IMG/VR virus record: IMGVR_UViG_3300045988_121566
Span: 1 to 64,000 of that record
Strand: one strand, 5' to 3'
From: a virus
DNA length: 64,000 nt
Shown here: in pieces, positions 3-48,851 of the stretch
Numbering within the stretch: the first letter of the stretch is position 1
Layout of the letters: every line of letters starts with the position of its first letter
Translations under genes and position numbers: made by a program
The notes under the pieces: generated by a model
Told to the model about the DNA's origin: nothing
What the model saw: the letters and a program-made list of their open reading frames with translations, nothing else
Databases searched by the model: none

Positions 3-3000
3 CTTGATGCCAACACAACTTCTTCTCAGAAGAGTAAGTTCAACGAAATGGAAGTTGCCGATATTACCAATAAATATGGCGATAAGGTGGTTAAGGAATA
101 CATGGCAGAGCATCTTGACCTTTACGCACGAATGGCTGATCCATTCGGATGGGAAAAGACTCATGGTGATGATTTGTCCAGAATCGACCCACAGACTCTT
201 GTTGCAAGCGGTGGCGGTGTTGGCGATGGCGAAGCTGGTGCCGACGCAAGCAAGTTGCTTGGTAGAATGGCATTGCTAAAGGTTTCTGAGCAGGAGAAGA
301 TGTTGCAGGAGATTGGCGAGCTTTATGCCAACGAGATTCAACGCCTCAACGAAATGGGTGAGAACGACCTGGAGATTACCGAGCTGCCTTTGAAGGCTAA
401 GACTCTACACAAGGAAGTTTGGAAGCAGGGAGCAGAGCCGGGCGGCGATAACGCATTTGCAGACAACACCTATATAGAAAAGGTGAACATGGCCATCTTG
501 AAGAAACCGATGAAGGCTTCTGAGGTGAAGTCTTCTCAGGAAGGCTTGACTGGCGGTAAGACTTGGGATGAATATAAGACCGAGAAGAAGGCTGCCGTGA
601 AGGAGTACTTCGACCAGAAGATTGCGGACGAGACTCAGAAGTATGAGGAGCGTGCGGTGAAGGCTGCAACAAAGGCCAAGGAGAAGTATATCAAGGATGC
701 TAAGAAGGGACAGAAGGATTCTGGCATGAGCGATGAGCAGATTGAGAAGATGGCTGGATATCAGTATGACAACATCTACAAGCAGGAGAAAGATAAGCTG
801 AACGATGTGATGAAGAACCTGAAATCCAAGGCTGAAATGTTTGAGCGTGTGCTTGATACCTTCGATACCAACCAGACTTTCGTTCTGCCTACAGATATGA
901 ATAACCCTAACGAGTTGAGCGGATTCGGCAATAGTTACGGTAGACTCATTGACATCAAGATTACTGATAACTACTCGCCTAACGCCTCTACGGTTTCATT
1001 CGCTACCTTGGATGGCAGAAGAAAGATTACTTTCCCTATTGCCGGAAATGTGGGTTCTGGTGAAAACAAGGTGGATATTATCAGTTCTATCGACCGCATG
1101 ACCAAGCAGGCTTCCAGTATGGGCGATAATCATATCAAGGTATTGAACCAAGACCTTAATAATTGGGATAGACTGACCAGCAACGAGAGCCGCAAGGATG
1201 GTTATATCGTGACAGACAATCTGATGCAGGCATTGGTTGACAGTAAGGATCAGGGATTTGGCGGTCAGTTGGTGAAGTACACTACTGATACTGGCGAGGT
1301 GAAGACTGGTATCTTGATGCCAGACCGATTCGACCCTAATGGCTTGACTACGGATGCGCCTATCAACAGCGTTGCTGATAAGTTTGAACTTTCATCATGG
1401 CGCGGAGGTATTGACGAGGTTACTTCGTCGGATGGTGAAGTAAAGGTGAAGCGCATAGATAACTATCGTGGTGATTACTTTGAGATTCGTGTACCAAAGA
1501 GCAAAGCGAAGGGCGGCAAGTACTTCATGGACGAAGATTTGCTGAAGCTGGTTGATGGCAACAATTTTGAAACCAGGGGAAACAATATGCTTGCTGAATT
1601 TAAGCCAGAGCAGTTGAAGCCAGTACTGGAACGCCTGTCTAAGATGGGCGTGAAGGTACAGGAGGAGCGTAATACTTCTGATGAAGAAGGTACTCACTTC
1701 CGCGAGGAACGAGTTGATGTCAACTATCCTGCTTCATCGGTTGAGAGCCATGTGGAGAAGGTGGCTCAGAAGACTGGCGGAAAGGTGAAGATGGTTTCAT
1801 CTGTTGATGAAATCACCAACAAGGAAGCAAAGGCAGCTATTGAGGAAGGCAGGAATATAACCGGTTGGTACGATGAAAAGACAGGGGAGGTTTGTCTATA
1901 TATGCCAAATATCCACGACAGATATACTGCCGAGAAGACTATCTGGCATGAGGTTGTAGGACACAAGGGAATGAGAGAGCTTTTCGGTGAAGAGCGATTC
2001 GGGAAGTTCCTTCGTGATGTATGGTACGACTTGGATAAGCCAGAGAATGCGGCTTTGAAGAAGCTGGTGGATGAGGAGAGAAAGTTCAACCCTATGAATA
2101 TCTACGATGCCATTGAGGAAGGTATCGCCCGACTCGCCGAGGATGGCAAGGGCGAAGCTGGATTCTGGAATGGTATCAAGAATAAGGTATCTGATTTTCT
2201 TCATGAAATCGGTTATCGTATTGCTCCTAATACTAAAGATGTGAAGTACTTGCTCTGGTTGAGCAAGAACTTGCAGAAGAATCCGAATGATCCATATTGG
2301 AAACTGAGAGCCGAGGCGGTTAAATACCGTCTCGACCATGAGGATATTCGGAGTGTGGTTTCCCGTGATGGCGTGTTCTACGAAAATGATGGCAAGGCTC
2401 GTTCCCTGGCAGACTTACCAAAGGCAGATTATCAGGAGGCTACAGACGGACAGATTCATTTCCGTACTACCCCAACCGCAGCTACTGCCCTTGACAGATA
2501 CCACCGTTCGCTTGACGCTCATGGCTATATGGCTACGGAGAGCTATATGGATAATATGCTTTCCTTGAAGAAGCTGATGAATGCCATTGTGCCGGACAAG
2601 AAGATAGAGGATATAGCTTCTTCTGAAAATCCATACATTCTTCAGAACGTCATGCAGGGCGCGATGAGCGATGCGGCAAAGATGTTCGAGATAAACATCA
2701 TGCGTCCTTTGGAGAAAGCTATGGCCGGAGTACTCGATGCATTTGAAGGCAAAAAGACAGACGACAAGATAAGGAACTTCAATCTCTATATGATTACCAA
2801 GCACGGATTGGAGCGAAACAGAGTGCTCTTTGTGCGTGATTCTGTGAGAAAGCTTCGTATGGATGACAGCACCAAGGCAGACGCTGAGAAGCTGCAGAGC
2901 GAATGGGTCGTCAAGAAGGAGGATTTGGGCAACCAGCTAAAGAGCGGAATCATCGACCTGAAACGTTACTACGAGAAGATGGACGAGTGGATACGCGATA

Positions 3001-5696
3001 ATGTGAACAAGGACTACGAGGCTGGAGAACACGACTATTCGGGTATGCACGGTGTGCAGGACATTATAAGTATGAAAGATCCATACAATGACGGAGAGGC
3101 CATACAGAGTGTGATGGACGCAGAAGCAAAGATGGAATCGGTAAAGGCCGGATCAGTAAGAGATTATTGGGATAAAGTAAGAGCGGCTACCAGATATTCG
3201 GTAGACTCAGACTATAATAACGGCATTATAGACAGAGACCTGCACGGACACGTATCGAAGATGTTTGACTGGTACGTTCCACTGAGAAACTATGACGAGA
3301 CAACGGCTGAGGATGTATATGGTTATATCACAGAAATCGGAGACCCGAAGAACCGCATAGGAAGCACCCTTGCAAAGGCAAGAGGACACAAGTATCTTAG
3401 CGAGACCAACATACTGGCTCAGATAGGAGCCTTAGGCAACAGAGCCATCAAGAACGGAGGCGATAATGCTATCAAACAGGCCTTTGCGAGATTTGCGAGA
3501 AACCACTCTGACAACAACCTTGTCAAGGAGACGAGTGTATGGTATGTGAAAGACCCCACAACAGGAATTGTAGAGGAACGTTATCCTGACATTCCTGAGG
3601 GTGCTACAGCTGACGAGATTAATCAGATAGTATCGGACTTCGACACCGATATGGATATGCTGAAAGCGCAAGGTCTTGCTACAAAGAAGTTTGACAGAGG
3701 AAATATCGGTTATCGCTTTGAGCGAGCTAAAGACAAGTCGCAGCATATCGTGGACGTGATGATTGCAGGCAAGAAGCACAGCTTTGTTATCTTAGGCAAC
3801 CCAAGAGCAGCGCAGGCTCTGAACGGAATGCTGGAGCACAAGAACGAGTCATTGGCAGGACGAACTACTGCCGCCATATCAAGATTCATGGCTCAGACCT
3901 GTACTTCATATAACCCAGAGTTCGTGATGCGTAATATGATAAGAGACTTTGAGTTTGCTTCTACCAACCTGCTTGCCAAGGAAGGTATGGCATACACCAA
4001 GACTTTCGAAAAGTATTATGCTCAGGTTGGACTTATCGAGGGTATCAGAAACACTAAGCTGAGTGATTTTAAGAAAATGACAGGTTTCGGATTGTTCTCT
4101 AAGTACAGAAACGGCACACTCGACACTTCCGATAAGATTCAGAGATACTTCAAGGAGTTCATGGAGAACGGCGGTGAGACAGGCTGGGTTCAGATAAAGA
4201 ACATGAAAGACCTTACTGCCGAGTACAAACTTCATGTAAAGACAGAGAAGAACGGCAAGGCCAGAGTATCAAAGAATGTCTTTGACTTTATCTTCAAGAA
4301 TTTGGAGAACGCCAACGAGGTTGCAGAGAACTTGGCTCGATTTTCTACTTATTGCGCGAGCCGCGATGCTGGCCGTTCGGCTGTTCGCTCTGCTTATGAT
4401 GCCAAGGAGGTTTCTGTCAACTTTAACCGACACGGTTCGGGTAATGCTATCTATTCGTTCAAGAACGGAGAGATGAGTAAAGCTAAGACTGCAAGAAAGA
4501 ATGTCTATGGTTTCTGGGCTTCTTGGTTTAGAAACTCGTCAATGTTCTTCAATGCAGGAGTGCAGAGTACAAACCTACTGATCAAGAACTTCAAGAACAA
4601 CAAGGCTGGAACGATAGGTTACATCATGGCCGGTCCAATGATGAGTGGTATGGCTATGGCTCTTATCAACAATATGCTTATCGCCAGTGAGGATGAGAAG
4701 GACAGGAAGGGAGTAAAGGACCCATACGGAGAGCTTCCTGACTATATCAGAAGAAACAATCTCTGTATCTACGTAGGAGGTGGCGAGTTTATTACTATTC
4801 CGCTTGCTATTGAGGAAAGGGCTTTCTATGGTCTTGGTGACTTAGCGGCTGGTCTTACTTTCTCGAAGAATATCAGCGGGCAGAAGAACCCTGCACTGGA
4901 TGCTGTAGGATGTATGTCTCAGCTGGTTCCTGTGGCTGATTATCTTGGAAATGCCTCATTCGGCAAGAAACCCGGAGAAGAAACCATTAAAGCCATTGCT
5001 CCATCTGCAGTTTCTCCTATCTTTGAATGGTTCTTTAACTCAGACTGGAAGGGCGCTCCTATCCATAGAGAGAATAAGTTTGACGAGAACCAGCCATCTT
5101 GGATGCTGGCCTACAAGGGTACACCAGAATGGCTCATCAACATCAACAAGAAAGCAAACGCATGGTCGAACGATGTAGCTCCTGGAAATGAGAACATGAA
5201 GGGAAACGATTTTCTTGATGCTGCGACAGACCCATCTTTGCTGCAGCACTTATATAGCAGTTATCTTGGAGGTGCAGCCACCTTTATGGAGAGAGTCGGA
5301 GGACTTGTTAAGAAAGGTAATGACACAGAAACAAAGGATATTCCTTTTGTGCGCTCCATGTTCTATACGCCAAGCGAGCAGACAAGCCTTCAAAGAACCA
5401 AGAGCAAGTGGTATAACTACTTGGATGAGACTGAAAAGATGATAGCGAATGCTAAACGCTTGAAGTCAAAGAAAGTTCCTTTGGATGAGCTGGTTAAGAA
5501 TTATGGCGACTACTACAAGTTTAAGCAATCAAAGGGAGCTGAGAAGATGAATGTTATCGAAACGGCTACCAAGGAAATGAAGAAGTGGAAGGAACTACGC
5601 AACAAGTCGAACGATGCAGAGAGTATCAACTTTGCCAATCAGAATATTGATTATATTATGATGAGGGCAGTGAATGAACTCGACAAGTTGAACTAA
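3..5696 (+). CDS. giant multidomain virion-associated protein (about 1,900 codons visible), 5' end probably outside the window; zincin-type HExxH motif; hydrophobic Gly/Met-rich C-terminal part
   Basis: Frame is open from base 3 to the listed Met at 48. HEVVGH lies at nt 1947-1964. Membrane-like segment GTIGYIMAGPMMSGMAMALINNMLIA. Hairpin terminator directly downstream. Confidence 0.7.
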   Translation, partial: LDANTTSSQKSKFNEMEVADITNKYGDKVVKEYMAEHLDLYARMADPFGWEKTHGDDLSRIDPQTLVASGGGVGDGEAGADASKLLGRMALLKVSEQEKMLQEIGELYANEIQRLNEMGENDLEITELPLKAKTLHKEVWKQGAEPGGDNAFADNTYIEKVNMAILKKPMKASEVKSSQEGLTGGKTWDEYKTEKKAAVKEYFDQKIADETQKYEERAVKAATKAKEKYIKDAKKGQKDSGMSDEQIEKMAGYQYDNIYKQEKDKLNDVMKNLKSKAEMFERVLDTFDTNQTFVLPTDMNNPNELSGFGNSYGRLIDIKITDNYSPNASTVSFATLDGRRKITFPIAGNVGSGENKVDIISSIDRMTKQASSMGDNHIKVLNQDLNNWDRLTSNESRKDGYIVTDNLMQALVDSKDQGFGGQLVKYTTDTGEVKTGILMPDRFDPNGLTTDAPINSVADKFELSSWRGGIDEVTSSDGEVKVKRIDNYRGDYFEIRVPKSKAKGGKYFMDEDLLKLVDGNNFETRGNNMLAEFKPEQLKPVLERLSKMGVKVQEERNTSDEEGTHFREERVDVNYPASSVESHVEKVAQKTGGKVKMVSSVDEITNKEAKAAIEEGRNITGWYDEKTGEVCLYMPNIHDRYTAEKTIWHEVVGHKGMRELFGEERFGKFLRDVWYDLDKPENAALKKLVDEERKFNPMNIYDAIEEGIARLAEDGKGEAGFWNGIKNKVSDFLHEIGYRIAPNTKDVKYLLWLSKNLQKNPNDPYWKLRAEAVKYRLDHEDIRSVVSRDGVFYENDGKARSLADLPKADYQEATDGQIHFRTTPTAATALDRYHRSLDAHGYMATESYMDNMLSLKKLMNAIVPDKKIEDIASSENPYILQNVMQGAMSDAAKMFEINIMRPLEKAMAGVLDAFEGKKTDDKIRNFNLYMITKHGLERNRVLFVRDSVRKLRMDDSTKADAEKLQSEWVVKKEDLGNQLKSGIIDLKRYYEKMDEWIRDNVNKDYEAGEHDYSGMHGVQDIISMKDPYNDGEAIQSVMDAEAKMESVKAGSVRDYWDKVRAATRYSVDSDYNNGIIDRDLHGHVSKMFDWYVPLRNYDETTAEDVYGYITEIGDPKNRIGSTLAKARGHKYLSETNILAQIGALGNRAIKNGGDNAIKQAFARFARNHSDNNLVKETSVWYVKDPTTGIVEERYPDIPEGATADEINQIVSDFDTDMDMLKAQGLATKKFDRGNIGYRFERAKDKSQHIVDVMIAGKKHSFVILGNPRAAQALNGMLEHKNESLAGRTTAAISRFMAQTCTSYNPEFVMRNMIRDFEFASTNLLAKEGMAYTKTFEKYYAQVGLIEGIRNTKLSDFKKMTGFGLFSKYRNGTLDTSDKIQRYFKEFMENGGETGWVQIKNMKDLTAEYKLHVKTEKNGKARVSKNVFDFIFKNLENANEVAENLARFSTYCASRDAGRSAVRSAYDAKEVSVNFNRHGSGNAIYSFKNGEMSKAKTARKNVYGFWASWFRNSSMFFNAGVQSTNLLIKNFKNNKAGTIGYIMAGPMMSGMAMALINNMLIASEDEKDRKGVKDPYGELPDYIRRNNLCIYVGGGEFITIPLAIEERAFYGLGDLAAGLTFSKNISGQKNPALDAVGCMSQLVPVADYLGNASFGKKPGEETIKAIAPSAVSPIFEWFFNSDWKGAPIHRENKFDENQPSWMLAYKGTPEWLININKKANAWSNDVAPGNENMKGNDFLDAATDPSLLQHLYSSYLGGAATFMERVGGLVKKGNDTETKDIPFVRSMFYTPSEQTSLQRTKSKWYNYLDETEKMIANAKRLKSKKVPLDELVKNYGDYYKFKQSKGAEKMNVIETATKEMKKWKELRNKSNDAESINFANQNIDYIMMRAVNELDKLN

Positions 5697-9246: not shown

Positions 9247-9623
9247 CAGAACAGGAGATTTACTTAGAGCAGTATGACTGGACGGTGCGTGTGTGTTATC
9301 ATGCTGGCAGGAATGATGCAATGAGAATAAGAAAGCATCTTCGGGAGTTGGGCTGTCATGGCGTACCTCTCGAAGATGCTTGTAATCTTATGCTCAAAGG
9401 TGAGCTGAATAAAGGGCTAACCTACTCCAATATGGACAAAAGGAAAAGTGTTGTCGTTATAGGGGAAGCCTCATCGTACCCTGAGTGGATCAATAGTATC
9501 GGACATGAAATGCTTCATGTGGTTCAGCATATATCAGACTGTTTCCTCCTTGATATGTATGGAGAAGAAGTGTGCTATCTGCATGGAAAGCTGATGCAAG
9601 CGAGTATGGATGGATTAAAATGA
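9243..9623 (+). CDS. small HExxH (zincin-like) protein
   Basis: Motif SIGHEMLHVVQH followed by EEVCYLHG. Same layout as ORF 36724-37155. Confidence 0.55.
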   Translation: MTEQEIYLEQYDWTVRVCYHAGRNDAMRIRKHLRELGCHGVPLEDACNLMLKGELNKGLTYSNMDKRKSVVVIGEASSYPEWINSIGHEMLHVVQHISDCFLLDMYGEEVCYLHGKLMQASMDGLK

Positions 9624-10205
9624 AAATACTAATTTTTCAGGATAACCCTTCGTTACATCATAAGCCTCGACCCCTTCTATTGAGGTAAGATCCATCACTT
9701 CTGCCTTATGATGGTGTGTAACATTGTTGGTCTGCTTGGCATAGACTTCCAACTCTTTCAACATATACAGGACGTTGTCAATATCCATGGTTTCACACTC
9801 TGTATCAAACCAGATGTCAACGGTCTTTTCTCCATCCTCTTTGAGTATGTTGGTAGAGTATGATAGACTTCTACGTAAGTTTACATCGAGCCAGCGTTGC
9901 TTGTCGTTGAGAAGGAAAGAGTTGACTGCCGATGATTTGTCATAAGCAGTTATCTCTGCTATCTTTTCTGCCTTAGCTTCTTCGAGTTTCAAGGCATCCA
10001 TCTTAGCAGAGAATTGCGTAAATGCAGCTCTTACTTTGGCTTCATCGAAAGAATCTTTCGGCAGAGTACATTCGTAGCACTCATAAGCGTTCATCTCCTT
10101 GTTATACTCGGCATTGATGTGATATACCACCATGTTTCCGTACTCATACGTTTGTCTGTACTGACCTTCTGGAATAAAGGTCTTGATAAAATTAATTTTC
10201 TCCAT
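9615..10205 (-). CDS. phage protein resembling DUF4376-type tail-associated proteins
   Basis: 196-aa ATG ORF directly downstream of the RT. The pattern NSFLLNDKQRWLDVNLRRSL ... MLKELEVYAKQTNNVTHHHKAEV ... YDVTKGYPEKL resembles DUF4376 from recollection only. Confidence 0.45.
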   Translation of the reverse strand: MEKINFIKTFIPEGQYRQTYEYGNMVVYHINAEYNKEMNAYECYECTLPKDSFDEAKVRAAFTQFSAKMDALKLEEAKAEKIAEITAYDKSSAVNSFLLNDKQRWLDVNLRRSLSYSTNILKEDGEKTVDIWFDTECETMDIDNVLYMLKELEVYAKQTNNVTHHHKAEVMDLTSIEGVEAYDVTKGYPEKLVFSF

Positions 10206-10212
10206 AGTCTTT

Positions 10213-11379
10213 TTACTTTTTAAATTTATTTTTTATTTTGATTTTCTTCATATTTACACAGAAGACTCTGTCTTTATGTGGCATCATCGCCCATGCCTTT
10301 CGCCTAACGTTATATGTATTATAATGAAAAAGTACGCCCATCAGGCTGTTGATGCGGTTTACGTACCTCTTCATAACTTCACCTTTAGGGTCAGACATCG
10401 TTCCGAATTTATCTATCACGTCATATAAATGTTCAACTGTACGTGAGTTTGGGAGTGTTCTGCCTGGGCGAATTAATGCGCCTGTAAACCTCACTCCACT
10501 CGATGCCCTCTGTAGGCTAACCTTTCGTGGATGCAGTGTAAGCCCATGTTCTTCTAACAGATAGTTTCTCGATTCTTGTAGGATATTCATAAGCAATTTT
10601 TTATCCCTACTGATAACTACGAAATCATCTACATATCTTCCATATCCACCATCTTCTCCCACTCTGTCTATCATCAGTTTATCGAATTGAGATAGAAGAA
10701 GGTTTGCAAGAAGTTGTGATGGTAGGTTTCCGATAGGCAAGCCGACACCTTTTCCACAGGTGAATAACGACTTATTCTTCGGCAGCTTATTCCACAAACT
10801 CAAATCACCCACCTTTATACAGTTCTTTGTCGGGTCGTGCAAGACAACTTTCTTCCATAGCCACAGCCACCATTCTATATCACTTCCATGATACTTTTCT
10901 ATGATAACCTTTTCAAGTAGCCTATAAAGGAGCGCACGATTAATGCTCATAAAGAAGCCTTGTAGGTCACATTTCAACACCCACGATTCCGTGGTGTAGT
11001 TATCGCTCACTCGCTTTATTTGCTTCTTGACATCAGCGATACCGTAATCAGTGCCCTTGCCTGCACGACAGGCATACGCCTTGTCTGTCATTTCACTTTC
11101 GAGTATGTCTGCAAATTTAATCGCAAGCAGATGGTGTACTATCCTGTCTCGGAATGCAGCACAGAACACTTCCCTTAGCTTTGGTCTCGTTACGCAGAAA
11201 GTCTTACTCTTACTTATCTCGTATGACATAGAGTTAAGTTCGATATATAGTTGATAATTATTCGCAATGTAGTTCATCTTGTATTCGATGCAGCCTGGTG
11301 TTGAACCCTTATGCTTACAGCAGTCGTAATAGGCATCATATACCTCGTCTATCGTTACATATTCTCTTTCAAATTTCAT
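10213..11379 (-). CDS. DGR reverse transcriptase
   Basis: YVDD catalytic box (GRYVDDFVVIS) and LPIGNLPSQ (the [ILV]GxxxSQ motif typical of DGR RTs). The track start at 11394 is TTG; the first ATG is at 11379 (MKFEREY). TR lies 46 nt upstream. Confidence 0.9.
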   Translation of the reverse strand: MKFEREYVTIDEVYDAYYDCCKHKGSTPGCIEYKMNYIANNYQLYIELNSMSYEISKSKTFCVTRPKLREVFCAAFRDRIVHHLLAIKFADILESEMTDKAYACRAGKGTDYGIADVKKQIKRVSDNYTTESWVLKCDLQGFFMSINRALLYRLLEKVIIEKYHGSDIEWWLWLWKKVVLHDPTKNCIKVGDLSLWNKLPKNKSLFTCGKGVGLPIGNLPSQLLANLLLSQFDKLMIDRVGEDGGYGRYVDDFVVISRDKKLLMNILQESRNYLLEEHGLTLHPRKVSLQRASSGVRFTGALIRPGRTLPNSRTVEHLYDVIDKFGTMSDPKGEVMKRYVNRINSLMGVLFHYNTYNVRRKAWAMMPHKDRVFCVNMKKIKIKNKFKK

Positions 11380-11424
11380 TTTTTTTAATGGCAAATACAG
11401 AGATAATCGTCACTACCTGATAAT

Positions 11425-11517
11425 CGAAAACTGGCAAAACCACGTTGCTGTTCGACTTGTTGTTGTTGTTCGCACTACTACTGTAGTTCCAAGCGTTCGT
11501 AGCATTGTTCTGCGTAT
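11425..11517 (-). repeat. DGR template repeat (TR)
   Basis: 93 nt matching 12037-12129 at a constant offset of 612. Coding sense is AAC-rich (AAC AAC AAC AAC AAG TCG AAC AGC AAC). All differences from VR fall on TR adenines. Confidence 0.9.
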
Positions 11518-11588
11518 CTCGGTACATTCTCCGTTTTTACGGTCTGAACACTTCTCCATTAAGAGTTGCGTGTTAATACCCCTTGTCA

Positions 11589-11987
11589 CTATAGTGACGG
11601 CACCCTCGTGTTGCATACAGCTTCACGACTCTCACCTTTGCGCTTTTGCTCTGCCTTCTGCCAACCATACGCCTCTCTCAGTACCTTCTCCGCTAAATGA
11701 TTGAGGTTGGTTGCCTGTTTCTTATTCAGAAACTCAGCATCCGTGAGGAGGTTGATCCTTGAGTTGACTTCCGACATGAGCAATATATATTCATGTATAC
11801 GATCATCTCTTTCCGTCCAGCTCTCGTTGATTCTGCGTATCATATCGAGTGCTGTGCAAGCCTTGCTGACAGCCTCATTATAGGTGCTGTATCTAACAAT
11901 CTTGCTGACGGTCTTGCTATACTTTAGAAGTATCTTGCACAAGACAAGCGTATCTTTGTATATAAACAAATTCTCTGTAAGTGCCAT
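11589..11987 (-). CDS. avd: DGR accessory variability determinant (Avd-like helical bundle protein)
   Basis: 133 aa counted from ATG 11987 (MALTENLF). Helical and basic, with the C-terminal region REAYGWQKAEQKRK as in Bacteroidota Avd proteins. Lies between VR and TR. Confidence 0.8.
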   Translation of the reverse strand: MALTENLFIYKDTLVLCKILLKYSKTVSKIVRYSTYNEAVSKACTALDMIRRINESWTERDDRIHEYILLMSEVNSRINLLTDAEFLNKKQATNLNHLAEKVLREAYGWQKAEQKRKGESREAVCNTRVPSL

Positions 11988-12028
11988 TTTCTTGAAAAGA
12001 GATTTAAAGAGATGAAGAGATAAAGAGG

Positions 12029-13984
12029 TTAACAAGCGAAAACTGGCAAAACCACGAAGCTGCTCGACTTGCCGTAGTTGATCGCACTACTACTGGAGCT
12101 CCAAGCGCTCGTAGCACTGCCCTGCGTAGAAGTCCACCTGTTTTTTTTCATTACGAAGTTGTAGTAGTCTGTAGCAACCGTCTCGCCAAACAGTGTTTCC
12201 AGCACCTGCCGAATGATACCGATATTGGCTACATGCACGTATTCCTGTCCAACCGACATGAGGAAACCATGTAAATCCTCACCACCGATTGTGAATATCT
12301 GACCATACGCATAATCAAAGGCTGGCACAGACAAGCTACGTTCCTGAGCCTCCTGTCTGATAAGGTATGATGAAGACTCTCCGTTGTAGTAATTTGCATC
12401 ATTCACGTTATTTCCGTTCAGAGCAATAGAATTAAACTGTAATTGCTGCGTACACCACGACGTACTTATCAGTTTTGACACATTCTTAATATCACTTGTA
12501 CGAATACAGAAAGTACCATGATTGATAGGAAGTGAAGCGCCTGCCACCTTGATAGCTACTGCGTCATCAGCGTTTCTTCCTGCGGTCACCCAGTCTTCGA
12601 TGTAGTACTCATTTTTATCAATATCTACCACAAATATACCCGACTTGAACTGGTAGAATCTGTAGTCGATAAGTCTCTGAGGAACGTTTGCCGTATAGGT
12701 TCTCGAGTTTTTATTGAAGCTGACATTGTAGCCTTCTTGATTATCAATTCTTACTGTATATTCCTTCTTGTATGGCACGAATACCGTCACCTGACCTTTC
12801 GCATCAGTCTGATATGTAGTATCCTTCCTGTCAACTGTCACAATAACAGGAATGCCTTCCCAAGCTGTGCCTACGTTCTCAACATACTTGGTAGCAGTGA
12901 TAATCACCTTCTCCATACTGTCCTCATCGTAAGGCAGATATTCCACATTGATATTTCGGCTACCCAATACTGCTGTATAGCCAACAGGAGCGATAGGCTG
13001 AGCATTGCCATATTCAGGGAACACTACCTGATAGTAGTTGCCTCGGTCGATGGTAAATGTAGCCTTACCCTCTGCGTTGGTTGTATACGTCTGAGGTGTC
13101 TTTCCGTTGTTGAGGAACACATTGATTTTAATGCCTGCCACGTTTATAGAATCAACAGAAGATGCGATGGTTACAGTCACTTCCTCATCTGTATTGATGA
13201 CATCTACCGACTTGGTTTCTCCGTTTCGGTTTGTTACAGATATTATTGAGCCTGACAGCTCCACATTGCAAGTTTCTGCTCCTGTCGTTGCAGTCTCTGC
13301 TGCTCGGATAGCGGTGTTTGTGTTATTGGCAGCGGTATTAGCTGCGTTGATGGATGCAGTAAGGGCATTGAGGTCTATATTGTCAAGTTTTCCCTTGTCT
13401 TCTCCAGACATAAAGCCAGGTTGACCTGGTAAATGATGGACTGAGCCGTGGGAAGGACCAGAAGCTAATGGAATACTAATTATTTTATGTTTGCCATCTG
13501 CAAACTCAAATAGCAGATTATTTAGTTTCACGTTAGGATTGAAGCTACCATCTACATCCGTATCAGTAAAACGAATGTCAGAAATAGTCTCACTCTTTTT
13601 AGAGTAATCCTTTAAATCTACACTCGTGGTAAATTCTCCTAATTGTTCCCAATCAGTATCTTTGACATTTGTAATATCGCTACCAGTAAATATATACTCT
13701 TTATATATATTCTTATTAGTCTTTTCATCAACACCTCTTGGAACCAAAAATATATGCTTACTTTGTTTTTCTGTCAGTTGTGTAGGAAGTTCAAGAGCTA
13801 TTTCGTGTATATCAGTATCAACATTTCCTAACTGAGAAAGAGGAACATTACCTCCTGCATCAAGAGAGGCAATACCATTTGCTACGCCCTTAGTATCAAG
13901 GACACTTTTCTTTGACTTGTCTATCTGTGTCTTGATGCCTTGCAGGAGTCTTAAAACACTATTTCTATCTAAATATTTTTCCAT
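12029..13984 (-). CDS. tail fibre / receptor-binding protein, DGR target
   Basis: The N-terminal KGVANGIASLDAGGNVPLSQLG motif is common in phage fibres. VR occupies the last ~31 codons (WTSTQGSATSAWSSSSSAINYGKSSSFVVLPVFAC). Confidence 0.85.
   Translation of the reverse strand: MEKYLDRNSVLRLLQGIKTQIDKSKKSVLDTKGVANGIASLDAGGNVPLSQLGNVDTDIHEIALELPTQLTEKQSKHIFLVPRGVDEKTNKNIYKEYIFTGSDITNVKDTDWEQLGEFTTSVDLKDYSKKSETISDIRFTDTDVDGSFNPNVKLNNLLFEFADGKHKIISIPLASGPSHGSVHHLPGQPGFMSGEDKGKLDNIDLNALTASINAANTAANNTNTAIRAAETATTGAETCNVELSGSIISVTNRNGETKSVDVINTDEEVTVTIASSVDSINVAGIKINVFLNNGKTPQTYTTNAEGKATFTIDRGNYYQVVFPEYGNAQPIAPVGYTAVLGSRNINVEYLPYDEDSMEKVIITATKYVENVGTAWEGIPVIVTVDRKDTTYQTDAKGQVTVFVPYKKEYTVRIDNQEGYNVSFNKNSRTYTANVPQRLIDYRFYQFKSGIFVVDIDKNEYYIEDWVTAGRNADDAVAIKVAGASLPINHGTFCIRTSDIKNVSKLISTSWCTQQLQFNSIALNGNNVNDANYYNGESSSYLIRQEAQERSLSVPAFDYAYGQIFTIGGEDLHGFLMSVGQEYVHVANIGIIRQVLETLFGETVATDYYNFVMKKNRWTSTQGSATSAWSSSSSAINYGKSSSFVVLPVFAC
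12037..12129 (-). repeat. DGR variable repeat (VR)
   Basis: Counterpart of the TR. 12037-12056 is identical to TR 11425-11444 (IMH-like end). There are 13 A-site substitutions in the next 72 nt. Confidence 0.9.
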
Positions 13985-13996
13985 TTGCTAATATTT

Positions 13997-14755
13997 TTAT
14001 CTAAATACACTTGATATACAACTGTCAATATCAGAATCTGTCATTGCTGTAATAACTTCGCTATTGTTGTTTAACAGACCTAACACAGAGCGGTTATGAG
14101 TTTTAAAACCAACTGCTGTAACATCTAATGGAACTTCAAATCTTCCACCATCAAAGCCACCAATAGAACGAGGGTATGGATCGTCATCTCCTCCACTTGT
14201 TTCCCATTTTTCTAACTTAACATCATAGCCATCTTTATTAAAGGCTATAACAGCAGGAAGAGCACTGATGTTTCTGATTTCTTTAACGCCTATGATATTG
14301 TGGTCGTTTAACCCAAGATCGCTGTGCATAAAATTGCTGCCATCTATTCTGAGATATTCATCTTTTAGTTTGTCCCAAACGGCTTGAGCAATCTTCTCGA
14401 TGGTAATGGCATTGTTTTCAATCTCCTGAGTGCCAACAGCTCCTTCTTGGATATTGACTCTTTCTACAGCTCCATTTCCAATGATGCTTGAAGTAACTGC
14501 GTGTTCTGCCAGTTTTCTTTCCGTGACTGCTTCATCATGGAGTTTTTCGGTTGTTACGGAATCGTTCGCTATCTCGTCAGTGCCAACAGCGCCGTCCTGG
14601 ATATTATCTCTCAGAACCGCACCTGTTCCAAGTTTTTCGGAAGTAACAGCTTCGTCAGCTAACTTTTCGGTTGTTACAGACCTGTCCTCGTAATCTTCAG
14701 TTTTCATTTGAGGAACTTTCGTTCCTAACCTAATATCTTCTCTAAATGTAGGCAT
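13997..14755 (-). CDS. tail fibre protein with short tandem peptide repeats
   Basis: Repeated units such as DEAVTSEKLGTGAV, DGAVGTDEIANDSVTTEKL and DEAVTERKLAEHAVTSS. Lies immediately upstream of the DGR target gene. Confidence 0.65.
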   Translation of the reverse strand: MPTFREDIRLGTKVPQMKTEDYEDRSVTTEKLADEAVTSEKLGTGAVLRDNIQDGAVGTDEIANDSVTTEKLHDEAVTERKLAEHAVTSSIIGNGAVERVNIQEGAVGTQEIENNAITIEKIAQAVWDKLKDEYLRIDGSNFMHSDLGLNDHNIIGVKEIRNISALPAVIAFNKDGYDVKLEKWETSGGDDDPYPRSIGGFDGGRFEVPLDVTAVGFKTHNRSVLGLLNNNSEVITAMTDSDIDSCISSVFR

Positions 14756-15021: not shown

Positions 15022-15714
15022 TTATTTATTTTGGTTAGCACCCAGTTGCTGCAGAGCAATAGAATACATTTGATTAGCCTTAGAATCATCATAGGCAGAA
15101 AGAAGTAAGAAGGCAAGATAGTAGATGAAGGCACCACGGAAGTTGTCGGAGATTTCGACAGAATCGTCCTCCTCGCCACTGCCCTTTGTTACGTCTGTAG
15201 GCACGCCTACATAAGATACGGAAATCGTTCCATCGGAAGGCATAGGCTGTACCAATACCTGCAGTGGCTTGACGCGCATGATGGCAGCTTGTGGTCGGTC
15301 GACGGTTCCCTTGGAAGTGTCATCAAACATCATCAGTGCCTCATCAGAGGTGTCCTCTACAGGAATGACAGCCTTGTGCCACCCTTTGCCACGTACACGG
15401 TTGATATTGAACACAGAGACAGACGAAGGCATTGTGATAACGCCAATATCCTCGTGCCCATCAAAGGAGGTTACCGTCATAGTAGCGGTTGTAGATGCCA
15501 CATCGGAAGAAGCATTCTTCTGTGTAGAAGAAGATGATGAAAGCACCGAAGAAGCGGAAGCAGTAATAGCAATCCAATGTAATGCATCAGGAATCTTTGC
15601 GCGGATGATATTCTCCATGTACACGTCGTCTTTATCGTCTGCGATATAAGATGTACCAGAAGTTTCCTCGTCAATACACCATCGTACCTGTTTTATGATT
15701 TCATCTACTCTCAT
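15022..15714 (-). CDS. hypothetical head/neck-module protein
   Basis: 230-aa ATG ORF, co-oriented with and packed against the capsid genes. Confidence 0.6.
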   Translation of the reverse strand: MRVDEIIKQVRWCIDEETSGTSYIADDKDDVYMENIIRAKIPDALHWIAITASASSVLSSSSSTQKNASSDVASTTATMTVTSFDGHEDIGVITMPSSVSVFNINRVRGKGWHKAVIPVEDTSDEALMMFDDTSKGTVDRPQAAIMRVKPLQVLVQPMPSDGTISVSYVGVPTDVTKGSGEEDDSVEISDNFRGAFIYYLAFLLLSAYDDSKANQMYSIALQQLGANQNK

Positions 15715-43028: not shown

Positions 43029-43238
43029 TTATTTATTTAGAAATTTAATTAATTCTTCTTTTGTTCTAAAACATTCCAATTCTTTCCGCATTGGAAAGAT
43101 TGGGAAGTGATAGGTGATACAAGGCTTTGCCGTGCCGTGTTGCTCAAACTTGATGCATGAGATGTTGGCACGGACAATCTTGTATCCGTCAAGAATATAT
43201 ACAGCATCACCTATATTGTATTTCGTCTTAATCTCCAT
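43029..43238 (-). CDS. hypothetical small protein
   Basis: ATG 43238 (MEIKTKYNIGDAVY) overlaps the ATPase stop by 11 nt. The longer track ORF is embedded in the ATPase gene. Confidence 0.5.
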   Translation of the reverse strand: MEIKTKYNIGDAVYILDGYKIVRANISCIKFEQHGTAKPCITYHFPIFPMRKELECFRTKEELIKFLNK

Positions 43239-45219
43239 CTTCGAATATGTATTCGAAGTTAGACGAAGGAGTGACGCGTAGACGTATCTGCTGCCCGCCA
43301 CGATATATAGGAGAAAGGTTGCTCTCACACTCATCAAGGACGATAGGGACGGAGAGCCCAAACTTCTCGGCTACTGTATACGCTATATCAATACCGGCAT
43401 TAGCCTTGGCTGCTGTATTGAGGCTGCTGTAAGGTACGCCATCGTGATAACACTCACAGGCCTGCTTTCGTTCGCCTTCGAGAGTTGTCCTAAAAAGCGA
43501 GAACTTAACATAGGAGAAATGCTCGTTGACACGTTCTTCGAGGAGTTGGCAGGCTTTCTGCTGATAATCATTAGCGATGTCAAGTTTCTGGTCGATATCA
43601 TCGAGCTGGCCCTGGAACTTCTCCTTGTCGCCCTGTGCATTAGAAATGAGGGTGGAGATGTGTTCATAGGTCTCTTTTGTTGCAAGACGTGAAGTAAGAC
43701 TATCAACAGTCTGCTGTTCCTCTGACTGCTGTTTCTTCAGATCAATGAGAAGTTGAGAAATGTCTTTCGTAGAATCTGACGGCTTGTTGAGTTCATCGGT
43801 AAGCGACTGTAGTTCCTCGGATGCCTGCCTGTAGTTCTCGTTGGCTGCAAGGAAATCATCTGCCGTGCGAACATTCTCGGCAAGTATAGTCTCAAGATGA
43901 GCATCAGACTGCTTCTTCGCTTTCTGAGCTTCTGTGAGCTGATTAGTGGTAGAGCGGCGTTCCTCATTTGTATTCTCAATTAGTTTCTTAATGTCGGTAT
44001 AACGCTGCTGAAGGTCACTAAACTCTTTCTGGAGTTCTTTCTGTCTGTTGGATATGTACTCATTAAACCTGTCGTGAGACTGCTGTTTTAATTCTGCTAC
44101 CCTATCGAGCGGCAGAGGTTGTCCGCAATGTGGGCACATAGAGTCTGCATCGTCCCACTCCCATTTCATCTGAGAGATTAACGTGGAGCGCTCGTTGAGT
44201 TTAATAACCTCAGCCTCGCACTCTTCCTTATGTTTGTTGGCCTGGATTTCGGTGTTAGTGAGTCCTTCCATCTTCTGCTTCAACTCATCGACCATTCGTG
44301 TAGCTGCTGAGGATGCTGCTCTGGCTGAAATTAAATCCGACTCGTGCTTTGTCGCCTCTTCATTGGCAAGGTTGCGTGCAGAAGCGGTCATCTCGTCAAT
44401 GCGCTTTTGTGTGAACTCTATGCGACGACGAAGTCCCTCATTGCGCACAGAGTCTGTTGCGCCATTCTGTGCAAGATTAATCTTGTCGCTAACCTCCTTG
44501 AGTTTCTTCTTTGCATCGTAAAGCTCTGCAGACAGCTTTTCCCAGTCTTCTGACTGAGGAAGTGCGTTATTGAGTTCTGCGAGACGGACAGGGACTTTGT
44601 CAAGATTATCCTGTACCTCCTTACGTGTGTACTTGAGGTGATGAATGAAAGCTTCGAGTTCTCGTTTCTTCAATTCCTCGGTAATGAAGTCGTATCTCGT
44701 ATCGCCTTGTGTAATGTCTTCCTGAGTGACTTCCGGTACAAGGGACTGGAGGAACTTGCGCTGTTCCTGCCATGTCATAGAAGTGAAGGCCGTGGCAGAT
44801 GAGCATAGTCGAAACGTCTTCTCCGGGCAGATGTTTTCAATAGCCTTGCGGTAGTCGCCAGCTGTCACCACTTCTCCATCAATGAAATACTTGTAAGTAT
44901 TCTTGACCTGCTCGCCCTTCCATAAATCTGTGAGTGTTCGCTTGAAGGTTGTCTTCTCGCCATCTACGCTGACAGTAAGCGAAGCCTCATGCGGAATCTC
45001 ACGGATGATTTGATGGTTGGAGTCATAGGTCTTAATGTCGAGCGCATTGCCAAACTGGTCGGTACCGAAAAGTACGTAGTAGATGGCATTGAAGATTGTC
45101 GACTTACCAATACCATTACTCCCACAAATGGTAGTGATGTTGTGATAGAACTCTATCTCTTCGTTATCAATTCCGCAGAAGTTAGACAGAGTGACTTTTT
45201 TGAATCGTATTGTTTTCAT
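43228..45219 (-). CDS. SbcC/Rad50-like SMC-type ATPase
   Basis: Walker A CGSNGIGKST, a long coiled coil with CPHCGQPL (zinc-hook-like), and C-terminal Walker B PIVLDE. Confidence 0.7.
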   Translation of the reverse strand: MKTIRFKKVTLSNFCGIDNEEIEFYHNITTICGSNGIGKSTIFNAIYYVLFGTDQFGNALDIKTYDSNHQIIREIPHEASLTVSVDGEKTTFKRTLTDLWKGEQVKNTYKYFIDGEVVTAGDYRKAIENICPEKTFRLCSSATAFTSMTWQEQRKFLQSLVPEVTQEDITQGDTRYDFITEELKKRELEAFIHHLKYTRKEVQDNLDKVPVRLAELNNALPQSEDWEKLSAELYDAKKKLKEVSDKINLAQNGATDSVRNEGLRRRIEFTQKRIDEMTASARNLANEEATKHESDLISARAASSAATRMVDELKQKMEGLTNTEIQANKHKEECEAEVIKLNERSTLISQMKWEWDDADSMCPHCGQPLPLDRVAELKQQSHDRFNEYISNRQKELQKEFSDLQQRYTDIKKLIENTNEERRSTTNQLTEAQKAKKQSDAHLETILAENVRTADDFLAANENYRQASEELQSLTDELNKPSDSTKDISQLLIDLKKQQSEEQQTVDSLTSRLATKETYEHISTLISNAQGDKEKFQGQLDDIDQKLDIANDYQQKACQLLEERVNEHFSYVKFSLFRTTLEGERKQACECYHDGVPYSSLNTAAKANAGIDIAYTVAEKFGLSVPIVLDECESNLSPIYRGGQQIRLRVTPSSNFEYIFEDGD

Positions 45220-47711: not shown

Positions 47712-48851
47712 TTAAAGTTTCCCCTCAAGTTTATCGAATGCTCCTCTAATATCTTTGTTAAGAGTCCTTGCGTATCTTGTTGTCTGACGCAGAGTCGTAT
47801 GGCCAAGTACTTTCATTACTACATTGATTGGCATACCTTTTGAGAGGAACAGGGTTGCTGCCGTTCCTCTGCCCATGTGGCTCCTGAGATTACTCACTCC
47901 AGCCATCATGCCTATAACCTTGAGATAATCATTATACTTCTGATTACTCAGATGTGGTAATTTGAAATCGTATTTTCTCAAAATCTCCATAGCCGGAGCG
48001 AGCAGTTGAAAAGAAAAGTCCGTGTCGGTCTTCGTGCGGTGTGACTTATAGACCATCTTTTTCTCCTCCTCCTCGCAGGCGCTGAAGTCGAACGCCATCA
48101 AATCTGAGTATGCAAGTCCTGTGTAGACTTGAAATAAAAATAAATCTCTTGCCCTGCAAAGGTGCGGAGTATTAAGTTGCAGCTCTTTAATTTTAATGAA
48201 CTGATCTTCTGTTATACAGTCAACGTATTGTTTTTCCCCTCTGTTTATCTTAAACGGCAACTTCGTATACGGATTTACATCTATAAGTCCGTCTACACAG
48301 GCATCATTAATGAATAGCTTTAGATATTTGTGGTAGTCGTAGATGGTTGATGCTTTCTTGCCTTGCTGGTGCAAGAACTCATCCATAGACCTGATGTTTG
48401 ACACGTTACAGTCGGAGAATAGAGCTATCTTCCCCCAGGAGCGGAGGAACTTTGTAAACACGACATACCTCTTCTTCGTATGCTCGCATACATTACGCTC
48501 ATTAGTCCGCTTTTCGCAATATGCTATAAAGTCGGTCTTGTCGCAGACTTCATTCTGCATAAGGGTAGGTATAAGGTCGAGGTCTGTAATGCCTTCCTCT
48601 ATCATGCGGTCTGTGATTTTCTTCACACGAAGATAGAACGCATGAATAGTTTCGTTCATAAGGTCTGCGTCCTTGCACTTCGACAGCACCATCTTTTTAG
48701 TGTCTGACCAGTTGTTAGGAGTCACAAGAACACCTGTTGACATGTACTTTCTCTCGCTTCCGAAAGACACACGAATTTCCACAGAAACAGCCTTTTTTGC
48801 CGTTCCTCGCTTCAAGCGGTTGTGAATAATGTTTAAATGTAATTTCTTCAT
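47712..48851 (-). CDS. tyrosine integrase (int): tyrosine recombinase / integrase (Bacteroidota IntDOT-like type)
   Basis: HMGRGT (HxxR), VLGHTTLRQTTRYA (His ... Tyr nucleophile), and an N-terminal arm-binding-like domain. The Arg-I position reads TGLAYSDL. Confidence 0.85.
   Translation of the reverse strand: MKKLHLNIIHNRLKRGTAKKAVSVEIRVSFGSERKYMSTGVLVTPNNWSDTKKMVLSKCKDADLMNETIHAFYLRVKKITDRMIEEGITDLDLIPTLMQNEVCDKTDFIAYCEKRTNERNVCEHTKKRYVVFTKFLRSWGKIALFSDCNVSNIRSMDEFLHQQGKKASTIYDYHKYLKLFINDACVDGLIDVNPYTKLPFKINRGEKQYVDCITEDQFIKIKELQLNTPHLCRARDLFLFQVYTGLAYSDLMAFDFSACEEEEKKMVYKSHRTKTDTDFSFQLLAPAMEILRKYDFKLPHLSNQKYNDYLKVIGMMAGVSNLRSHMGRGTAATLFLSKGMPINVVMKVLGHTTLRQTTRYARTLNKDIRGAFDKLEGKL

Follow-up and report, generated by a model that had tools for sequence, protein, structure and literature searches.

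The 64,000-nt stretch analysed here (positions 1 to 64,000 of IMG/VR record IMGVR_UViG_3300045988_121566, hereafter the window) most likely carries a canonical and complete diversity-generating retroelement (DGR), made up of a target gene, an avd-like accessory gene, a template repeat (TR) and the gene for a reverse transcriptase (RT), in an uncultured temperate gut phage. We put the probability of this reading at about 0.88. A first-pass annotation made from the sequence alone had proposed a target-avd-TR-RT order for this region, and the proposal stands, each of the four components having passed an independent test. Coordinates of all features are collected in Table 1.

Ungapped comparison of the TR with the variable repeat (VR), both on the minus strand, pairs 11425-11517 with 12037-12129 gaplessly at an offset of 612, as first reported, and the recomputed list of mismatches is identical to the earlier one (TR coordinates 11445, 11446, 11451, 11460, 11461, 11464, 11469, 11484, 11487, 11496, 11505, 11508, 11509 and 11517). 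All 14 positions are adenines in the coding-sense TR, which has 32 adenines per 93 nt, 30 of them within the 72-nt section (hypergeometric P of 3e-8 for 14/14 mismatches on adenine, 9e-8 for 13/13). The A-to-C difference at 11517, real in itself, is constant in 12/12 of the ungapped VRs recovered and in every relative, and judged by this constancy it is the 5' boundary of the homology and not a product of mutagenesis; what had been described as a 93-nt repeat with a 14th mismatch thus becomes a 92-nt repeat with 13 adenine mismatches, over which not a single non-adenine position differs. When each TR adenine is replaced by N, the resulting pattern matches the window twice, at the TR and at the VR, with a chance expectation of 0; the search for further VR copies thus returned no third copy in the 64 kb.

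The VR occupies codons 619-649 of the 651-aa target open reading frame (ORF), in agreement with its original placement at the C-terminal codons. Read in frame, TR and VR differ only at positions 1-2 of AAC, AAT or TAC codons, and the residues changed are 622, 623, 626, 629, 630, 635, 637, 638, 641 and 643; a VR at the 3' end of the target gene, with mutable adenines at the first two codon positions, corresponds to the AAY design of DGRs. At their 3' ends the two repeats share an identical 20-nt block (11425-11444 and 12037-12056), 19 nt of which occur only twice in the window, followed by GATTAT in the TR and GCTTGT in the VR, a difference that is constant across all 20 loci with an ungapped repeat pair (see below). 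The two adenine differences located just 3' of the identical block (11424 and 11421) are likewise constant at all loci and behave as a distinction of the type known between the initiation of mutagenic homing site (IMH) and its counterpart IMH*, rather than as mutagenesis. The sequence thus contains both an IMH-like block and a non-identical, IMH*-like counterpart. A 52-aa ORF (11369-11527, minus strand) overlaps the TR and reads it in the frame of the VR (MYRDTQNNATNAWNYSSSANNNNKSNSNVVLPVFDY...); it is most likely an incidental result of the TR having originated as a copy of the 3' end of the target.

Forty related loci were used for comparison. Retrieval based on the RT yielded 23 IMG/VR loci with 64-90% RT identity, 20 of which have an ungapped TR/VR pair, and in these 20 loci 226 of the 234 TR/VR mismatches fall on TR adenines. 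Retrieval of VRs by a VR-specific 3' anchor, with no condition placed on the variable part, gave 17 contigs from viral and human-gut metagenome collections, with 17 different VRs (17/17). Compared with the TR of the window, the 12 ungapped VRs show substitution frequencies of 0.36 at adenine sites and 0.022 at non-adenine sites (Fisher P 9e-54). No segment of the cassette is more conserved than the TR, whose variable part is 97-100% identical in most relatives with 82-92% identity in the RT and in the body of the target, with the exception of loci having an eroded TR (87.5-90% identity in the variable part). A hypervariable VR next to a conserved TR, measured here between samples, is the signature of a template under purifying selection feeding a hypervariable acceptor. 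The adenine-restricted polymorphism that the first-pass annotation proposed to look for in population data is therefore seen between samples, not within one.

These data also bear on whether the element still functions. Loss of retrohoming in this genome, with the VR as the frozen product of past events, is an unlikely explanation: the RT is an intact 388-aa ORF with YVDD and SQ motifs, the avd-like gene is intact, no AAC codon of the TR has been lost and its identity to the family consensus is 97-100%, a different VR is found in each sampled contig, and VR and TR have no non-adenine difference over 92 nt as opposed to 8-18% divergence between relatives in the neighbouring coding sequence. This explanation does draw some strength from a comparison made between samples, from the occurrence of non-adenine mismatches (8/234) in a few loci and from the loss of TR adenines, together with resemblance to the VR, in L010/L027 and in L009/L030/L033. 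For the lineage, the data bear out the earlier statement that the element is or recently was active; for the genome at hand, such activity is presumed from the zero count of non-adenine differences.

Three other observations were made on the repeats and their surroundings in the related loci. The eroded TRs mentioned above (L010:4868-4962 and L027, which are the same contig; L009, L030 and L033) carry VR-like substitutions. The L010 TR reads GCGTACGTCATCGAC where the family has GCGAACAACAACAAC, retains 25 adenines instead of 32, and shares its substitutions with the L010 VR. This looks like VR-to-TR gene conversion or homing of cDNA into the template, and would cripple further diversification at the eroded codons. 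Secondly, 5 of the 17 VRs (L001/L025, the L009 group, L013, L031 and L038) have one codon more than their own TR in the AAC-AAC-AAC-AAC run, shifting the offset by 3 nt within the repeat, which points to slippage of the RT on the AAC repeat or else to a formerly longer TR; indels of this kind have already been illustrated by Wu et al. (PMC5758913). Finally, in a subgroup of loci (L004:4396-5001, L007, L008, L021 and L022; proteins P0126-P0154) the avd ORF lacks a stop codon ahead of the TR and continues through it in frame, so that gene callers give predicted Avd proteins of 181-207 aa ending in a TR-encoded peptide.

The RT is encoded by a single intact ORF and matches Pfam RVT_1 (2.5e-17) and the phage RT family phrog_1423 (7e-77). 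Both motifs noted at first, IGNLPSQ and YVDD, were found and align with IGSLTSQ and YMDD of the Brt protein of Bordetella phage BPP-1, to which the RT is 31% identical (BLASTP, E 1e-36) and with which it shares the residues at Brt R74 and I181, differing by an insertion of approximately 27 aa before the SQ motif and a longer C-terminus. The RT does start just downstream of the TR as described, with 45 nt rather than 46 between its ATG (11379) and the last TR base. Among solved structures, the best match is 8ub7, a 328-aa, presumably Brt-like RT chain (E 4.6e-31); Brt from the phage record is likewise 328 aa long. Among the RTs of cultured phages, the closest come from Bacteroides uniformis phages F2, F4 and Bacuni_F1 (39-41% identity over 93% of the length), and B. 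uniformis phages F1, F2 and F4 are published DGR carriers (PMC8143477). The RT belongs to a 90%-identity cluster of 785 members. Public records name the same protein 'retron-type reverse transcriptase', and the best NCBIfam models are of group II and retron type, because no DGR-specific RT match was returned from that library. It is nonetheless highly improbable that this is the RT of another retroelement (retron, group II intron or defence RT) beside an ordinary duplication diverging under positive selection. The NCBIfam scores are far below the cut-offs (91.8 vs 300 bits and 50 vs 235 bits), and group II and retron RTs reach only 1e-7 or weaker in the PDB search, 24 orders of magnitude behind 8ub7; neither a domain of maturase or endonuclease type nor intron RNA nor an Rfam match resembling msr/msd turned up, and ordinary divergence cannot account for 226 of 234 differences sitting on adenines of a single copy. 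The [I/V/L]GxxxSQ and YxDD motifs, along with a similarity to Brt exceeding that to group II and retron RTs, are those of a DGR RT. Directly downstream of the RT gene lies a 196-aa ORF (9615-10205, minus strand) that is conserved in relatives, one homologue being labelled 'DUF4376' in a third-party annotation (TPA) record. Oddly, the 196-aa proteins sit in the same 90%-identity cluster as the RT, and the ORF may be one more gene linked to the cassette, or an artefact of the clustering.

Small, basic, helical Avd-type accessory proteins encoded next to the TR accompany approximately 74% of DGRs. The ORF located between VR and TR, first given as 133 aa and in fact 132 aa plus a stop codon, has the expected position and a basic isoelectric point (pI), and matches phrog_3206, 'Avd protein of DGR' (1.6e-6). 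This profile is also matched by 48 of 50 homologues (best 6.9e-11), and the Pfam bAvd model by 5 of 50 only (best 9.7e-4). The Avd-like designation proposed earlier is thus maintained.

Searches with the target protein against PDB, Pfam and NCBIfam gave no informative family match beyond a weak SdrD_B signal (Ig-like, SdrD_B/Cna-type); public records list the same protein as 'hypothetical protein', and only one of more than 2,500 homologues has a functional name ('collagen adhesion protein'). The last 212 residues constitute a module that occupies the C-terminus in every case, is found in proteins of 205-1,384 aa (135 representative clusters at 50% identity) and has the motif pattern W-T-S-T-Q ... 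A-W ... K ... V-x-P-F-F-A, the variable columns sitting between the conserved columns of the family. This module has no Pfam or PDB match by sequence, even with a 40-sequence profile. An AlphaFold2 model based on a shallow alignment (71-92% identity) had a predicted local distance difference test score (pLDDT) of 36 and was discarded; the diverse alignment that replaced it gave a model with a pLDDT of 96.8 and a predicted template modelling score (pTM) of 0.92. A Foldseek search of this model against the predicted viral structures of BFVD returned full-length matches (TM 0.67-0.72 over about 210 columns), among them a 'DUF1566 domain-containing protein' from a crAss-like phage and a 'Tail fiber protein' of 1,417 aa, matched at its C-terminus; further DUF1566 proteins came next in the ranking. 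On these neighbours we base the designation DUF1566-like. DUF1566-type proteins are a recognised class of DGR targets (category 'd', C-type-lectin VR group CLec2; Wu et al., PMC5758913). The C-type-lectin fold that the first-pass annotation suggested looking for is thus supported by the structure model, as a DUF1566-like fold of the type filed under CLec2, and not at the level of sequence, and the PDB match is weak (see below). Nine AAC codons of the TR, together with one AAT and one TAC, carry the mutable adenines at positions 1-2, an arrangement by which about 11 residues in the predicted C-terminal beta-strands of the domain would be randomised without the creation of stop codons, corresponding to some 2e12 peptides.

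The domain is probably the ligand-binding tip of a tail-associated fibre, and the element therefore probably varies host-receptor specificity. That the target is a tail fibre, as originally stated, is plausible: synteny and annotated structural neighbours agree with it; the target has no fibre family match of its own (Pfam, PHROG and NCBIfam). In transcription order, a gene resembling that of the major capsid protein (MCP), an SU10-adaptor-like gene and a fibre-repeat gene precede the target. A working DGR with a different kind of target, such as a head fibre, a decoration protein or a mucus or glycan adhesin, has a modest chance of being correct, as the absence of that family match, the adjoining head-module genes (MCP-like gene and adaptor) and the weak Ig-like SdrD_B/Cna-type signal, along with the homologue named 'collagen adhesion protein', would all suit it. 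What tips the balance towards a tail fibre is that the gene directly upstream carries tail-fibre repeats (phrog_892, 3.6e-26) and is itself preceded by the SU10-type adaptor gene, that the 1,417-aa 'Tail fiber protein' is among the structural neighbours of the variable domain, and that the domain is found at the end of proteins of widely different size (205-1,384 aa), which is what one would expect if fibre tips were exchangeable.

Several observations weigh against a complete and functional DGR with a fibre target. The Avd-like ORF has no similarity to BPP-1 Avd by BLASTP or hhalign and no meaningful match in the PDB, whether searched as a single sequence or with two profiles, and its assignment comes from one profile library. 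The IMH-like block lacks a GC-rich character, and the DNA fold of 11960-12060 showed neither an inverted repeat nor a cruciform 3' of the VR (z = -0.04); a GC-rich inverted repeat downstream of the IMH is present in only 34% of DGRs and is not a defining feature (PMC5758913). Adenines outside AAC-type codons seldom vary among VRs, and selection or sequence context would therefore shape the observed variation. The nearest related genomes recovered are only about 90% identical and so allow no isogenic comparison, and ongoing diversification in this genome is a presumption. As to the target, besides the missing tail-fibre family match, its DUF1566 assignment leans on predicted viral structures and automatic names: the top PDB fold match, the C-terminal domain of Legionella Lcl, which we take to be of the DUF1566 type, is weak (E 0.076 over 67 columns; TM 0.19 query-normalised and 0.29 target-normalised).

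To look for RNA structure in the sequences flanking the TR, the TR and its flanks from 14 loci were aligned and analysed with RNAalifold and by counting pairs. There is moderate evidence for conserved helices around the TR, the support being only moderate because the loci represent five or six lineages. Overall, 94% of cells are paired, as opposed to 30-49% when the partners are slid, and 5 pairs are compensatory; pair 63:205 of the long-range duplex, for instance, is UA in 6 loci and CG in 6. In the stem-loop formed from the last two TR bases onwards, 97.6% of cells are paired, with wobble-compatible changes only and no compensatory pairs. Single-sequence RNAduplex analysis of the TR flanks did no better than with shuffled sequences, so that only the alignment-based analysis is informative. 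In BPP-1, cryo-electron microscopy has revealed, where the TR ends 3', a template:primer duplex (TR:Sp) and, adjacent to it, an avd:Sp 'cPRT Stop' duplex that joins sequences flanking the TR and sets the cDNA end (bioRxiv 10.1101/2023.10.23.563531). By analogy, the stem-loop at 11408-11426 is a candidate template:primer duplex, and the long-range duplex, whose 5' strand ends exactly at the start of TR/VR homology as expected of a cDNA stop element, may resemble the 'cPRT Stop' duplex. We tentatively propose, as a possibility that is less than even, a minimal DGR RNA of about 180 nt (11395-11573) in which the stop duplex abuts the edge of TR/VR homology and the primer lies about 10 nt from the template in a local hairpin. 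If this were true, the locus would combine a naturally compact, self-contained template cassette with a DUF1566-like domain invisible at the sequence level, and could attract engineering of targeted diversification.

From these elements we infer the following course of events. A transcript comprising the 3' flank of avd, the TR and the start of the RT region would fold into the conserved helices, and the RT, together with the basic Avd-like protein, would copy the 92-nt TR into cDNA while misincorporating opposite template adenines. Reverse transcription would be primed in cis from the 3' end of the TR, as in BPP-1, and would stop at the flanking duplex. The cDNA would then replace the VR at the 3' end of the 651-aa gene, and the direction of replacement would come from the 20-nt block common to both repeats and from the flank specific to the VR (GCTTGT, as against GATTAT in the TR).

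That the window is phage DNA is indicated by a portal gene, the MCP-like gene, the adaptor, a tyrosine integrase and a protein containing the LPD38 domain, giant multidomain proteins of the LPD38 type being carried by some phages and conjugative elements. The tyrosine integrase makes the phage probably temperate; searches of GTDB species genomes with RT peptide patterns and with a 30-nt TR core turned up no prophage copy. The host is probably Prevotella or another member of the Bacteroidota, as judged only by the 'uncultured Prevotella sp.' labels of some homologues, others being labelled as Caudoviricetes metagenome-assembled genomes. The SU10_adaptor match hints at a podovirus-like tail of SU10 type with fibres near the adaptor, which is where fibres attach in the SU10 podovirus tail. 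The 252-aa ORF upstream of the target is mostly made of short (D/E)xAVTxEKL-type repeats, matches several tail-fibre PHROGs and contains direct DNA repeats of 120-150 nt. Megablast of the cassette against INPHARED phages found no nucleotide-level similarity, and the capsid is only about 25% similar to those of cultured Bacteroides phages. There are no tRNA genes in the window, and Rfam searches at E up to 1 over 9500-14500 returned nothing. Identity with Quimbyvirus was considered; against it, a single ORF encodes the RT here and the window yielded only one VR, neither of which matches what has been published for that phage.

Table 1. Features of the DGR and its surroundings (feature, positions in the window, strand, remarks)
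DGR-type reverse transcriptase gene	10213..11379	-	388 aa; motifs IGNLPSQ, YVDD
Putative long-range duplex, 3' strand, TCTCTGTAT	11395..11403	-	Followed by an A-run before the RT start
Stem-loop from the last two TR bases, CGATTAT / GTAGTGACG	11408..11426	-	Candidate template:primer duplex
Template repeat (TR)	11425..11516	-	92 nt; 31 adenines; 9 AAC codons and 1 AAT
Putative long-range duplex, 5' strand, GTACCGAGA	11517..11525	-	Pairs with 11395-11403; abuts the 5' edge of TR/VR homology
Two small conserved hairpins, avd stop to TR	11531..11573	-	11548-11573 and 11531-11542; compensatory changes at 4 pairs
avd-like accessory gene	11589..11987	-	132 aa plus stop; pI 9.15; between VR and TR
Target gene, virion fibre or adhesin-like protein	12029..13984	-	651 aa; VR at C-terminus
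IMH-like 3' end of VR	12031..12056	-	20-nt TR-identical block (12037-12056), then VR-specific flank CTTGTT
C-terminal variable-protein domain	12032..12667	-	Residues 440-651; DUF1566-like by predicted structure
Variable repeat (VR)	12037..12128	-	92 nt; variable part 12057-12128, codons 619-643
Fibre-repeat ORF	13997-14755	-	252 aa; directly upstream of target; phrog_892
SU10-adaptor-like ORF	15022-15714	-	230 aa; Pfam SU10_adaptor 27.3 bits vs curated cut-off 27, E 5.8e-6
Giant multidomain ORF	48-5696	+	1,882 aa; LPD38 'large polyvalent protein' domain; phrog_14770
SbcC-like nuclease/recombinase	43228-45219	-	
Tyrosine integrase	47712-48851	-	phrog_1 1.8e-31

This locus is an ordinary, textbook-architecture example of a well-known system and leaves the understanding of DGRs unchanged: the B1 architecture of Wu et al., the setting in gut Bacteroidota phages and C-type-lectin-type or DUF1566 targets have all been documented (PMC5758913, PMC8008677, PMC8143477). 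Only two features are mildly unusual: the cis-RNA is compact, and sequence models miss the family to which the target domain belongs. With this locus, a lineage of temperate phages of the human gut that is abundant but uncultured, and is represented by hundreds of related contigs, gains a cleanly documented DGR. The variable-domain family, with at least 135 clusters at 50% identity, is not captured by Pfam and has a DUF1566-like predicted fold, which makes it useful for the annotation of DGR targets. The compact helices would fit the stop-duplex and template:primer model of BPP-1 and could provide a second, far shorter natural example on which to test it.

Compared with the mtd-avd-TR-brt element of BPP-1, the locus has the same gene order and strand, an RT 31% identical in which the SQ and YxDD motifs and the residues aligned with Brt R74 and I181 are conserved, TR/VR differences confined to adenines of AAC codons, near the 3' end of the gene for a virion protein (putative in the present case), and an identical 3' block followed by TR- or VR-specific bases, in keeping with the IMH/IMH* logic. 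The putative duplex joining the sequences upstream and downstream of the TR, and the helix at the TR 3' end, also occur in the same order and with the same adjacency. The differences are of several kinds: the repeat is 134 nt in BPP-1 and 92 nt here; the IMH-like block here is not GC-rich and no inverted repeat was found after the VR; the two Avd proteins have no detectable pairwise similarity; the target domain is of Mtd type in BPP-1 and DUF1566-like here; the spacing from TR to RT start is 144 nt in the BPP-1 record and 45 nt here; template and putative primer strand are separated by about 10 nt here, as against a primer about 50 nt into a long spacer in BPP-1; and the RT here has the insertion of about 27 aa before the SQ motif and the longer C-terminus.

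The DGR-carrying phages of the human gut compared here differ from this one by an absence of nucleotide similarity (INPHARED) and by capsids that are only about 25% similar in the case of cultured Bacteroides phages. Quimbyvirus further differs in having a three-frame RT and two targets, as opposed to a single-ORF RT and the one VR found in the window here (PMC8008677). The human-gut Bacteroidota phage setting is nevertheless shared with B. uniformis phages F1/F2/F4, Hankyphage, which lysogenises Bacteroides, and Quimbyvirus (PMC8143477, PMC8008677), and a tyrosine integrase is present both here and in Quimbyvirus (PMC8008677). In these gut-phage DGRs the VR lies, as it does here, at the C-terminus of a protein encoded in or beside the structural module, with a C-type-lectin-type domain in Quimbyvirus (PMC8008677). 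With regard to the DUF1566/CLec2 proteins (Legionella LdtA class, category 'd'; PMC5758913), the domain described here differs in having no sequence match to Pfam DUF1566 with the 40-sequence profile and in being about 212 aa long, with a beta/alpha extension on the N-terminal side; only 67 columns are covered by the PDB match. It resembles them in that the Lcl C-terminal domain is its best PDB match and DUF1566 proteins are its BFVD neighbours, in the predicted location of the VR on C-terminal strands, and in the W-T/S-S-T-Q ... A-W ... V-x-P-F pattern that runs across the module family.

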